Assembly (NCBI RefSeq): GCF_006345805.1
Contig: NC_043000.1
Coordinates: 35,278,001 to 35,342,000 of the forward strand
Length of the DNA stretch: 64,000 nt
DNA from: Octopus sinensis
Taxonomy: Eukaryota
Reading direction: 5' to 3'
Of the stretch, positions 43,279 to 57,300 are shown in pieces (position 1 is the first letter of the stretch; each line of letters begins with the position of its first letter). Under the pieces are notes generated by a model that made no database searches, was not told where the DNA came from, and saw nothing but the letters and a program-made list of their open reading frames with translations. The position numbers were made by a program, and so were the translations under genes.

Positions 43279-43400
43279 AATGCCGTGCGCCACAACCTTA
43301 GTCTTCACAAATGTTTTATGCGAGTTGAGAATGTTAAGGGGGCTGTATGGACCGTCGACGAGGTAGAGTTCTACAAACGGAGACCACAAAAACTGAGTGG
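43279..43400 (+). CDS. FoxP: FoxP forkhead C-terminal exon, canonical form ([41 protein letters not shown])
   Basis: Acceptor ttctctgcttAG ends at 43278 and donor GG|GTATGT is at 43401. 122 nt, phase 0/2. Closely resembles the canonical FoxP recognition-helix exon. Confidence 0.97.
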
Positions 43401-44419
43401 GTATGTTTTTTTTTTTGTTTGCTTGATTGTTGTCATTTTTTTTTTTACAAAACTTTACGAAAAGCAAAAACTCACAAAAGAAAAAAAAACAAAAGAAAAT
43501 GATGAAAGAATTAATATTAACCTCTTTCTCTCTCTCTCTCCTTTCTCACTTTCTTTCTTCATCATCGCATATATATGTATATATGTGAATGTATATATAC
43601 ATATATATCTTTTCCCCCTTTGTGAGATGTTGATGTGGTTCGCCAAGCTTGTGAAATCTGACCTTGTGGCAGAATATTTTCTTGGTTGTTTTTTTCTTTT
43701 TCTTACCATTTTTGAAATTTAACTATTCTCCCCCCACCACCGCCATACAAACTCTAAAGCTCAGAAAAAAGTTCAGTCTTTGTTAACCTCACCACATTAC
43801 TTCAATTATTACAAAAAGAAAAGAAAAAAAAATTTTAACGTTTTTCTCTTAAATATTTTATATAAATTTTTAAAAACTATTTATTTTTGTCTTTTTCTTA
43901 AGTTAATTTCTTTTAGAAAGTTTTTTTTTTCCTTTTCATTTTACATGTGAGAGTTTATATGAGTATGTACTCATGTATGTTTATATACTGTTTGCATGTG
44001 TGAGCAAAGGTGTATGTATGTATATATATATATTATATATATATATTATATATATATATATATTTGTGTGTGTGTGTGTGTTCATCCATACTTGTCTGTC
44101 GATTCATTTATCTCTTAATTTCCTTCCAAGTAAATATTTAGAAAGTCTTGCAGAATTACATCTTATAAATTTCCTACATTGTCTTCTTTTCCAGTAGTTT
44201 TGATGCTAAATAATTTTGTATTTGCCTCAAGGTTTCTTTTTGTCTTCTACTAGTTCCAACCAATGGCTTGGTGTGTGTGTGGGGGGGGGGGATTCCTTCA
44301 TCTGGCGCTTGTTGTTGCCACTATGCTTAAATCTTTCAATCTTTCTCTCATACAGTTTTTATAGGAACCAAGTAAATATTAACATTAATAATAATTATAA
44401 TAATAATAATAATAATGAT

Positions 44420-44865
44420 AATGATTTATTTTATTTGCCACCAGGGTGAAGGATGAGGCGGGGCAATAGAAAGACAGACATAAAGTGTTGAGGTTTACAT
44501 ATAATGGAATAATTAAAGCAAACGAAGTATACATGGTGTACAATAAACAAAGGAAGGCAATATACAGTAGTAAGAAACAAAAAAGATGATAGTGATGTGG
44601 TCCTCCTGATACAGGAAGACTTCTAGGGAAAATTGTTGAACCCTACCATCCAAGATCTCCTTGAACACCAAGGGCAAGCACCTTCTCCAACTCACGGGTC
44701 AGTGGAGGGGAATTGGAGAAGTAGCACCCACTCTTGCCAATAAATTCAACCAAGGACCGCATCTCTCTACGCTCACTTTTCTTTCCAAGTGAAACTTAAA
44801 AAAGTTGATGAGGCCTCCACCAAAGAGGAATGCATCTATCCTCATGCCTTTCAACCTCGTCACTA
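44420..44865 (-). mobile_element. Possible L1/Tx1-like LINE 3' fragment
   Basis: Minus-strand peptide TRLKGMRIDAFLFGGGLINFFKFHLERKVSVER resembles Tx1-type ORF2 C-termini. A-rich 3' end. Confidence 0.35.
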
Positions 44866-44944
44866 ACAACATTGATATCAGCAGCCATAATAATAGATAA
44901 TAATGCCAATAATAATAACCGCAACAATAATAATAATAATAATA

Positions 44945-53175: not shown

Positions 53176-54221
53176 AATTATAATGATTTGCACCAAATAA
53201 ATGAGAGTAGAAGATATTAATTGTTAGTTGAAAAGGGTTTTTTTTTATATCGTTATTGTTACAAAGTTACAACTACTCTGAGTTGTATCTTCAGTTTTCT
53301 GTAGATAGTTAGCTTCTAATTAGTAAAGAAAGAAAGAGTAAGAGAGTTGTACATTGACAATCCCTAAATGAAAGGAGCAAATGAGCTGTGTTCTTTGGGT
53401 AGGTGTCAAGTAACCAAAGAGGAGGAACTGATTTCAGGTTGCTTATCTATATTCTTCCTAACCAGATTACATCAGGTTAATCAAAGGATATTTTCCTCTG
53501 TATCAGCTTTGACCCATGTATGTCTCAAAAAGATTAGAGATTACAGTTAACTCTCATAAATTTTCTAGTGCAACAGGCAAGAACAATAGGCAGAGAACTT
53601 GTAGAAAAATGTAGATTTAATTTGAAATCCTGGTTCAGAAATTGGAAGCTATAATCAACTGACTATAAATTTACCTTTTTTAGGCAGTTGAAATTATTTA
53701 ACTCCCCCATTTCACTTCATCAGTGTATTTCTGCATTAATTTTCCATATAAAGGGTGGAGGTGGGGAGGTCTTTTTCATTAACATCAGACTGATTAGTAA
53801 GATTTATATGTAAGAAGAAAACCTTTGCAAAATTTTTCAGTTAATTTTCATTTTAATTGTTTTAGAAATTGGAAAATATTTCCTAATGGCATCAGGATTT
53901 ATGTCTGCGAGTGGATCTGTGTATGTGTTCATGTAAACTTCCCCGTATTTTTACTCTCAGTCAGTGGATGATATTATTCTTTGTTTTTTATTTGTTTTTC
54001 TTTTATTTTTTTCATTCCATATTAACAAAATACAACATTATAAAGCATTAAATCAATTGGTTTGAGTATCTTATATGCATGACCAACGAAAATTTCTCTA
54101 CAAACTGAAGACTTTTTCATGGGCTTGGCTACTGTATATTCCCCTCTCTATATACATTTTCTGCCCTGCTGCTAACGCCATCTGCTGTCTTCTTTCCCAT
54201 TTTTCTTCTCTTGCTGCACAG

Positions 54222-54379
54222 AATGCTATTCGCACCAATTTGTCCCTGCATAAATGTTTTGTAAGATATGAGGATGATTTTGGATCGTTTTGGATGGTGG
54301 ATGACTTTGAGTTCGTTAGGCGCCGCCATCTGACTCGTGGACGACCCCGAAAATATCACGAAAGTGACACTGCTGCACA
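54222..54379 (+). CDS. FoxP: FoxP forkhead C-terminal exon, alternative form ([53 protein letters not shown])
   Basis: Branch-like GCTAAC at 54171, a long pyrimidine tract and CAG ending at 54221 (phase 0). Donor CA|GTAAGC at 54380 (phase 2), or read-through to TAA at 54381-54383. The peptide resembles FOXP1 exon 18b and the insect FoxP alternative forkhead exon. Confidence 0.93.
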
Positions 54380-57300
54380 GTAAGCACTAACTGGTTCTTT
54401 TCTCTCCTCCTCACAAACCAATTAATTCTGTCATGTTATCCCCTCCACCCCACTCCCAATCATTAAGATTCTCCACTTTCTTTCCTCTTTTTCATCATGT
54501 TGATGAATTAACTCTAATATTAGTTCTTCACCCTTTTCTTCCTCCCACCCTATTTTACTTCTCTCCCCGTTTTTTAACTCAACCTTTAACATGTGGCTGA
54601 TTCTCCCTCCTTCACTGTATTCTCTATACTCACTCGTCTCACTACCCCGCACCCCACCCAATAGACTTTTAATCTTTCTCAGATATTTCTGACCCTTGGC
54701 TCAAGATGACCAACTTTTTCTGTTTTACCATTCATTTTAGTGGGGAATTTTGAAATTTTCATCATTTTAGTTAAATAGATGTTCTGCAATTAGTCAAATG
54801 GCAGAGTTTTATTAGTTTAAAAAGAAAATCAATTAAGAGAATAATGATTGAATAATTAACACTACAAATTTATAATTATAAATATTTAAGTTCCACACAA
54901 ACTTCTTGAGGTTGTTGCTAAGATCTGAACTATTCTGTGTTCTGTTATGATTCTTCAGATATCCAACGTTAATCAACTATTTCAATGGTTCTCAATATTT
55001 CTAAACGTAACTGTTATGTTTTAAAGACATGAAACTAAGTCTGATATTCAGGGCTTTTATTTAGATGATTCCATTTGGATTTGTTTGATTCCATTTTACT
55101 ATCAAAAAGATCTTTCATAAATTTGCAGATATGAATTGTGTTTCTATGTGTTTGTGGTGGCATGTTAGGGATTGTATAGCCAAGTTTATTCTCAGCTTTG
55201 AACTAGCAGGATCAATCTTAAGGCATGGTACCTGGGACTGCCATAGGCTCATGTTGCTGACTTTTGAATAAAATGGAGTTCATAGAAACCATGTAGAGAT
55301 GTTTCAGATAAGCTGTACCAACTATAGATTTATCTGCTGTTAGTATATCTCATCTCAGCAACAATTCTATGTGTAAACCTTCTTGAAGATATTTCTAGGA
55401 AATAATCACCATTTTTCTGGCCAAATATTATTGATGACTTTTTAGAAATTCCTTTCCTATAATTATTGAATGAACTAATATTGAATTTATAATGTACCAA
55501 AATAATTAAAGTTTTATAAATATTTACTTTTAAATCACTTTGTCAATTAATGAAATTTAAATTAAAACTAGGTATTGCAGTTCATTTGCTTGTTTCAGTA
55601 ATATACTGCTGCCATGCTGGAGCACTGCCTTTAAAATTTGTTTGTAGAAAGATGTCTATAGAATGAGGGTTAAATATATCTAGTTATTTTTAGCCTTGGG
55701 TCATAAATACCCTACTATTCTACATTTTTGGCAATTTTCTCCTGTAACTTTGAAGAAATCCTTGCTTATTTCTTTTTCCACCATTGGATATTGTCCCTTT
55801 TATCATTAACAGTTTTTTTTTATTATTGTTTACTTAGGACCAGTTCTGTTCTTCATGTTCTTAAATATATTTAAACCTTACTTATTGAAATACCTGTTAC
55901 CGGCTTCAGTAGACATTCTCCTTTTAGCTATACTATAGTTCCTTCTCTTATCTATTCTATAAACCTATTATTAGCTACATAGAATGGTCTTCTTATTAAC
56001 TTCAATATAGTTCCACTTAACAGCTATGGGATAGTTCTTCATTTTATATATAATATAGATCATATTAACTATTGTAGACTTCCTCTTGTTATCTTTTGTA
56101 TAATCCTCGTAATAGCTGTAGTAGACTTCCTTTAATTAGCCGTAGTATAGTCCTCTTATTAGCTATAGTGTTATTCCTGTTATTAGCCGTAGTATAGTTC
56201 CTCTTACTAATGACATTATTGTTCCTGTTGTTATTGCCGAGTTCTTTACTTTGTATGTATTTTCATTAATTTACTTTCAAAACTGAATTTGTTTGAAACT
56301 ATTCCCAAAGTAAAACTAACAAAATATGATTATATATAAATACTGTATGTAGTTTAGCAGTATCTGCTATATTCCTTGTGTATACTGTATGTAGTGTGGA
56401 ATCATCTAGCTTCTAAGAACCACTCTGCAGCTGATAAACGGTTGCAATAAGTGCACCTGAGAAATTCTACTACAGTTTATTGCGAGGGACTCTATTTGGT
56501 GGCCACCACCACCACACACAAAAAAAAACAAATGAAAAATTGAGAATATTCTTTAACATTTTTGATATTGGTAACATTATTTTCTTCTATTTGGGTTTGG
56601 AGAAATGTTTGCTTGCATTATTCTGCTAGATGCCTCATGATGGTATTATATTCACCAATGCTAAAGATTTCCTTTCAAATGAAAATATGTTAGAATTTTC
56701 CAGCTCATTGAATTAGAAATGTTAATATTAAAAAAAAAATGGCCAAAGAAGGAAAATCATTTTAAGTTGTGGAAAATTTAATTTGTTGTTATCAAACAAG
56801 CATTTATTTATTGAGTACCTTTTAAATTTGATGAAATTATTTTCTAATTTCCTGTGTGGTACCTATTTTCATACTTTATGTCTAGAATTATTTTAATTAT
56901 ACAACATCGCCACCCCAACAACAATAATAACAACAACAAACATTACAATGAGGTGGGGAGGGGGTAGTTGGTTACTGTCGCGGTTATCTGAAAATGTATC
57001 GTGTGAAAAATATTAAACGAGTGAGATTAAATTGCTGTACATCAATATCTGTGTGTAAAGGTGTTGTTTATGATTTACTCCATTAAACATTCTCCCACTG
57101 CAACACCGTTTGCCTCTACCACCGTTTCTCAGCTGCCTCAGCTACAGGAGCAGCTGACAACAAACTGTTCACTCTAGTGGTGGATTGAGTTGCAACAATG
57201 CAGTTCTTGTCTCTTCTAATCTCCCAAAACTACCTATTACTGCTATAGTTTGGTTTGTTCCATCAGGTTCTATTGTAATTGAGTCTTAGCAAGTGTAATT

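Follow-up and report, generated by a model that had tools for sequence, protein, structure and literature searches.

Can a single octopus gene supply two different DNA-binding domains? We addressed this question in a stretch of 64,000 nucleotides from Octopus sinensis (NCBI RefSeq assembly GCF_006345805.1, contig NC_043000.1, positions 35,278,001 to 35,342,000 of the forward strand), hereafter the window, in which positions are counted from the first letter. The window covers part of a FoxP gene, and a preliminary description had singled out two similar exons, here called A and B, as alternative versions of the second half of the forkhead domain. Our analysis makes it very probable that this one FoxP gene produces two full-length transcription factors by choosing A or B between the same flanking exons. 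The exon pair is real and was correctly interpreted. It is also already known, so that its novelty had been overstated: the bilaterian age, in silico cases in molluscs and annelids and the His to Thr replacement were published in 2010/2011, while both exons are annotated in O. bimaculoides and exon B in O. vulgaris.

All exons and splice elements given below lie on the + strand. The constant exon that feeds A or B (28334–28435) encodes helices 1–2, ends with ATWK at a phase-0 donor and was identified by a tblastn match and its splice sites. Exon A (43279–43400, 122 nt) runs from phase 0 to phase 2, with an AG acceptor at 43277–43278 and the donor GG/GTATGT (the slash marks the exon–intron border). 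Exon B (54222–54379, 158 nt) has the same phases; upstream of it a branch-point-like TGCTAAC (54170–54176) is followed by a pyrimidine tract and an AG (54220–54221), and its donor is CA/GTAAGC. Both peptides are present as originally quoted, continuing from ATWK in phase 0, and the reported spacing of 10.8 kb corresponds to an intron of 10,821 nt. The end of exon B had to be moved, since the position first given, 54383, lies four bases inside the intron and beyond an in-frame TAA that read-through of the donor meets at once. The two exons are identical at 21 of 40 residues and 68 of 122 nucleotides. Exon A encodes the canonical NAVRHN recognition helix, the strands and a basic tail, and exon B encodes NAIRTN, an acidic EDDFG turn and RGRPRK; translation thus bears out the proposed change of His to Thr in helix 3 and the acidic turn. 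The downstream exon lies 1.3 kb beyond the window (acceptor before G000:C4:35343272), and the frame of either exon continues there into NLSMK. Both lengths leave a remainder of two when divided by three, so that inclusion of A and B together shifts the frame and reaches a stop at codon 55.

A and B form a tandem duplicate within one FoxP gene, and no other FoxP was found in the octopus genome. The O. bimaculoides RefSeq FoxP maps exon by exon and in order over ~190 kb of contig C4, in a whole-gene search that used a stricter first pass, and places A and B between the helix 1–2 exon and three C-terminal exons. When each exon was used as a query against its own genome, only these two places matched. 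Both octopus RefSeq isoforms contain the FOXP coiled coil (PF16159) and the forkhead domain (PF00250) above cut-off, which assigns them to the FoxP subfamily; the Pfam Forkhead scores are 94.8 bits for isoform A and 85.2 bits for isoform B, against a cut-off of 27. In sequence, the forkhead exons do not differ from those of O. bimaculoides, nor the downstream exon from that of O. vulgaris. Exon B is not a chance reading frame, since its peptide matches 388 database proteins at E<=0.001 and the O. bimaculoides RefSeq isoforms carry both exons letter for letter. There are no further degenerate copies of forkhead exons within the window.

Protein models use the two exons as alternatives. In the octopus FoxP cluster of RefSeq and UniRef annotations, A occurs in 4 of 13 members and B in the other 9; in the cluster of the chiton Liolophura the counts are 3 and 5 of 8, and the single nemertean FoxP model uses B. 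None of the 21 octopus and chiton models has both exons, which, together with the phases and the frameshift on double use, agrees with the proposal that they are mutually exclusive. Models of the alternatives include XP_052822820-830 and XP_014787682-685 of O. bimaculoides, CAI9721853.1 (B) of O. vulgaris and XP_064604863-871 of the chiton.

Contigs from sequencing runs, presumed to be of RNA, suggest strongly that both exons are spliced. All 11 sampled words of exon B are present in 19 runs (of 20 listed) from 9 studies and 5 organisms, although none of these runs is on record as RNA. Assembled contigs of four of the 19 (X1, X6, X10 and X15) were aligned. In run X1, A is covered by a contig of 177 nt and B by one of 213 nt, and both cease to fit at the exon borders. 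Exactly these lengths are expected if the contigs are the arms of an assembly bubble flanked by shared neighbours, 25+122+30 = 177 and 25+158+30 = 213, a calculation that allows for the identity of the first five bases of A and B. Longer contigs, of 2,622 nt in X6 and 3,076 nt in X15, contain exon A, and they too stop matching at its borders; in X1, X6 and X15 alike, the contig pieces on A fall at 43277–43400. An A-to-B joint is absent among the 15 joints listed (356 further), and the exon-only contig pieces listed contain no other letters that would point to RNA recoding in A or B. Mean contig depths in X1 are 20.5 for A and 10.4 for B, values that we did not use to rank the isoforms.

The relationship of the octopus exons to those of other animals was assessed in a tree of 49 hand-chosen rows spanning taxa, built from the 40-residue exon peptides; with so few columns, only the A/B split is trusted. 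All 24 B rows, from octopus, chiton, nemertean, insects, crustaceans and the FOXP1 of mammals and eel, fall on one side of a single branch with support of 96/99, and the basal order of the A rows is not resolved. By this comparison, the orthologues of octopus B are fly exon 8 and vertebrate FOXP1 exon 18b/16b, as had been suggested, including the exon of the splice form FOXP1-ES. The tree is likewise consistent with the early bilaterian age proposed for the switch. Santos et al. 2011 (PMC3002244) describe the A/B pair, confirm both isoforms by reverse transcription PCR in fly and mouse, and report both forms in silico in Arthropoda, Annelida and Mollusca. They date the pair to the base of Bilateria, with absence in sponges, cnidarians, placozoans and nematodes, and find the vertebrate splice sites of the new exon conserved. 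Among the 120 listed of the 388 exon-B matches, the named organisms are all bilaterian. In the literature searched, from which subscription journals are mostly missing, we found no paper on cephalopod FoxP isoforms and, for an alternative FoxP exon in molluscs, only that of Santos et al.

The two exons differ in the recognition helix. Thr occupies the position of the helix-3 His in all 42 distinct B sequences, which follows from the search pattern by definition, and the Asn is kept in 39 of them. Gly in place of Asn is found only in four vertebrate FOXP1 proteins. The statement that octopus B keeps the Asn, unlike FOXP1-ES, is therefore correct, but this is nothing special to octopus, being the usual state among invertebrates and that of Drosophila B in Santos et al. 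(PMC3002244). The double change of FOXP1-ES (Asn to Gly and His to Thr) is not present in octopus B, which has His to Thr alone. Among DNA contacts, fly B changes only His554 to Thr and mouse B also Asn550 to Gly; the former was modelled as a lost base contact, and relaxed specificity was predicted for fly B (PMC3002244). For the human protein, FOXP1 is reported to prefer GTAAACAA and FOXP1-ES CGATACAA (review PMC11701043, citing Gabut 2011). In the same literature search we found no measurement of the binding motif of the invertebrate Asn/Thr form. No solved structure of the B form emerged either: the seven matches are all vertebrate FOXP1-4 chains, and the three alignments listed have His. 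The fold of B thus rests on the Pfam match and on the models of Santos et al.

These results suggest how the locus may work. Choice of A or B between the constant flanks would give two intact forkhead domains, and inclusion of both would lead to a frameshift, an early stop and probably nonsense-mediated decay. Steric exclusion is ruled out, because the intron between A and B is 10.8 kb long. Long-range RNA pairing was also considered and rejected: between 20000 and 63900 there is no inverted match beyond simple repeats, and at five splice sites the best duplex energies do not leave the range spanned by shuffled probes (three per site). Exclusion is therefore most likely enforced by frameshift and decay. 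With its Asn and His, isoform A would recognise the canonical forkhead site. Isoform B, which keeps the Asn, loses the His contact and gains an acidic strand turn and a basic RGRPRK tail, is expected to have relaxed or shifted binding preferences, given the modelling of Santos et al. and the motif of FOXP1-ES. FoxP proteins pair through a leucine zipper, which A and B share, so that A/B heterodimers are likely.

Several observations weigh against two functional factors. The partner exons of the X1 contigs are deduced from lengths, and the RNA status of the runs is presumed. Three of the four runs have a listed B contig with intron sequence: in X6 and X10 it ends at the B donor but includes 128 and 634 nt of the upstream intron, respectively, and in X15 it is unspliced on both sides. 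Such contigs may be splicing intermediates, retained introns or DNA. Judged from proteins alone, annotated FoxP of Ptychodera (7/7) and Owenia (1/1) uses A only. Finally, we infer rather than observe that the Asn/Thr form binds different targets than A. Part of this evidence would suit an alternative that we consider unlikely, namely that both exons are used but B leaves the sequence preference largely unchanged and tunes affinity, partner binding or dosage, including through intron-retained or terminal forms that end at the TAA of the B donor. The retained Asn, the merely relaxed specificity predicted for fly B (PMC3002244), the intron-containing B contigs and the immediate stop on read-through are all compatible with it, and flies do make an intron-retention FoxP isoform (PMC7776582, PMC6372147). 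Against a tuning role stands the near invariance of Thr, the acidic turn and RGRPR across B sequences. The fly isoforms also differ in their overexpression phenotypes (PMC6372147), B marks ~65% of FoxP neurons (PMC7776582), and the motif of human FOXP1-ES is shifted (PMC11701043).

Two other alternatives appear highly improbable to us. Exon B could belong to a separate or nested FoxP fragment, a possibility already named in the preliminary description, or be a silent relic, and the UniRef model A0A0L8FR17 (P0131) indeed starts in the intron upstream of B. In the present genome, however, its start codon (54119) is not in the reading frame of B, neither the window nor the genome search contains a second set of upstream forkhead exons, and RefSeq joins B to both neighbours, in line with the bubble-arm lengths in X1. 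The recovery of every sampled B word in each of the 19 runs also speaks against this reading. Equally hard to defend is convergence, that is, an octopus exon duplication independent of the fly and vertebrate pairs. The tree does rest on 40 columns and leaves many inner forks open, but the B clade is supported at 96/99 and one change is needed, in 98% of bootstrap trees. Moreover, the A-then-B order, the phases and the donor sequence are common to octopus and insect-like loci. A choice between A and B in a single gene remains the reading that we prefer.

Beyond the known arrangement, the only leads would be the RGRPRK tail and the shared donor sequence, neither of which we found in print. Past the end of the Pfam forkhead match, 41 of the 42 distinct B sequences, vertebrate and insect ones included, have RGRPR, and GRP is present in none of the 91 A sequences. 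Exon B alone thus carries an RGRP core with basic flanks, as in the AT-hook (Pfam PF02178), to which the octopus B tails score 16.5 bits (E 0.0075) and 14.9 bits, below the cut-off of 17.4. At these scores PF02178 hits both octopus B peptides, but none of three other B peptides and no exon A. No paper on an AT-hook of FOXP1 was found by title or abstract start, with the coverage mentioned above. The donor element GCACA/GTAAGCACT (54375–54388), with the in-frame TAA on read-through, is identical in the window and in metagenome loci L025, L027, L030 and L034. Because L027, L030 and L034 are almost the same sequence, with a tail also found in a bee protein, the identity amounts to about three lineages. 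A phase-2 CA/GTAAG is found at the B donor in 8 of 18 metagenome loci, with exon lengths of 155–350 nt; the remaining ten comprise two incomplete loci, six B-only genes without this donor and two that differ. Vertebrate B also ends in His or Gln, whose codons begin with CA. The A donor reads GG/GTAYG in the window and in seven of eight loci, and thus has a pyrimidine at +4, whereas CA/GTAAG of B fits the NN//GURAG class, in which +4A sites lose use upon METTL16 loss and +4U sites gain (PMC11732430). It is speculation that the A/B choice is tied to this METTL16-sensitive class. Taken together, we put forward as a tentative and rather doubtful proposal that B, including that of human FOXP1-ES, appends a working AT-hook, exchanging a major-groove contact for minor-groove reading of AT-rich flanks, and that its inclusion depends in part on a donor conserved between octopus and insects which, opposite the +4 pyrimidine of the A donor, would make the A/B ratio sensitive to N6-methyladenosine in U6, deposited by METTL16. 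If the tail is a functional AT-hook, this would refine how FOXP1-ES changes its targets.

The acceptor region of octopus B (54152–54221), with its TGCTAAC and pyrimidine tract, holds six YGCY (MBNL-type) words where shuffled sequence has 1.62 (p=0.001; six acceptors were tested, of which this is one), no more than a hint of MBNL repression. A conserved MBNL cluster before B was rejected, as the 18 other loci have 0–2 such words each. In X6 and X10, the contigs that end at the B donor keep intron sequence within 53588–54221, which suggests either that splicing removes the downstream intron before the upstream one or that the latter is retained. In X15, the most divergent run, the listed differences flank 54157–54455, an interval spanning 65 nt on the acceptor side, exon B and ~75 nt on the donor side, and none falls inside it.

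Two other coding exons lie upstream in the window. A Gln/Ser/Pro-rich linker exon (20362–20685), ending in an RRRVSDK motif, matches O. bimaculoides RefSeq FoxP in tblastn at 94.6% over 111 aa and has splice sites, the donor being GC at 20686 or GT at 20690. The forkhead-start exon (RPPFTY; 25888–26006) matches at 100%; depending on whether its acceptor at 25888 or that at 25930 is used, the protein gains or lacks 14 residues immediately N-terminal to the forkhead domain, in agreement with RefSeq isoform pairs of 995/981 and 983/969 residues. Copies of two N-terminal FoxP exons on contig C11424:1538-7373 (G000), with scores identical to those on C4, likely represent an uncollapsed haplotype. 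Residues ~7–70 of P0123 (the N-terminal part of RefSeq isoform X1) match many dispersed genomic repeats, so that the first exon may have arisen from a repeat. Judged by motifs in the list of open reading frames, the intronic pieces 8797–9840 (-), 14451–15187 (-) and 17431–17667 (+) are mobile-element remnants, comprising two reverse-transcriptase-like pieces of long interspersed nuclear elements and one Tc1/mariner-like transposase piece.

The arrangement varies among the metagenome loci. A, or most of it, is upstream of B in nine of the 18 (eight by pattern, L026 by tblastn), at ~0.34–1.3 kb where measured, so that the octopus spacing is far longer; three show no A within the sequence examined, and six are B-only. 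In these six (L036:2729-3179, L037-L040 and L041:4129-4554), B follows the ATWK exon after 58–136 nt, leaving no room for A, which was not found elsewhere in the locus either, a mirror image of vertebrate FoxP2/3/4. P0097 resembles them. Their nearest named relatives are crustaceans (69–82%), but they are unlike the usual copepod FoxP and possibly represent a second paralogue. Copepods have also duplicated the upstream helix 1–2 exon (L028:2815-2920 and 3300-3404; P0372, P0376, P0267, P0381, P0273, P0379, P0264, P0266). Lepeophtheirus RefSeq models show all four combinations of upstream exon and A/B; two variants of the upstream exon occur in Tigriopus, and the RPPFTY exon, too, exists in two versions in Calanus-like sequences, indicating a combinatorial forkhead domain in copepods. 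The Panonychus citri model P0140, with three tandem forkhead starts, is probably a fusion of tandem FoxP copies.

In itself, the octopus pair adds little to what papers or annotations already contain on the two exons, their age and their occurrence in molluscs, but it flags a gap in expression studies. The octopus FoxP expression work that we found used primers on the exon A motifs AVW and WKNAVRH (PMC2722649) and would therefore have missed isoform B. In the fly, operant self-learning has been linked to isoform B (PMC7776582). Compared with the bilaterian pair of Santos et al. (PMC3002244), the octopus shows no difference in kind: tandem exons for the second forkhead half, His to Thr and the Asn kept as in invertebrates. 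The accessible text of that paper makes no mention of the RGRPRK tail or of the precise sequence at the donor. Database FoxP models of O. bimaculoides and the chiton have the same alternatives, and that of O. vulgaris has B, with octopus peptides identical to those of the window, as database annotation only. Vertebrate FOXP1 18/18b (mouse 16/16b; PMC11701043, PMC4978528, PMC8989529) is likewise an orthologous, internal, frame-preserving and mutually exclusive pair, and FOXP1-ES shares with octopus B the Thr in helix 3, the acidic turn and RGRPRKY. It differs by Gly in place of Asn; a role in pluripotency and repression of the exon by MBNL (PMC11701043, PMC4978528) are known for the vertebrate form. 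Drosophila exons 7/8 (FoxP-iA/iB; PMC7776582, PMC6372147) resemble the octopus exons in the Asn/Thr B form, with nearly identical core and tail, but they are alternative last exons, whereas octopus A and B are internal and join three further exons.

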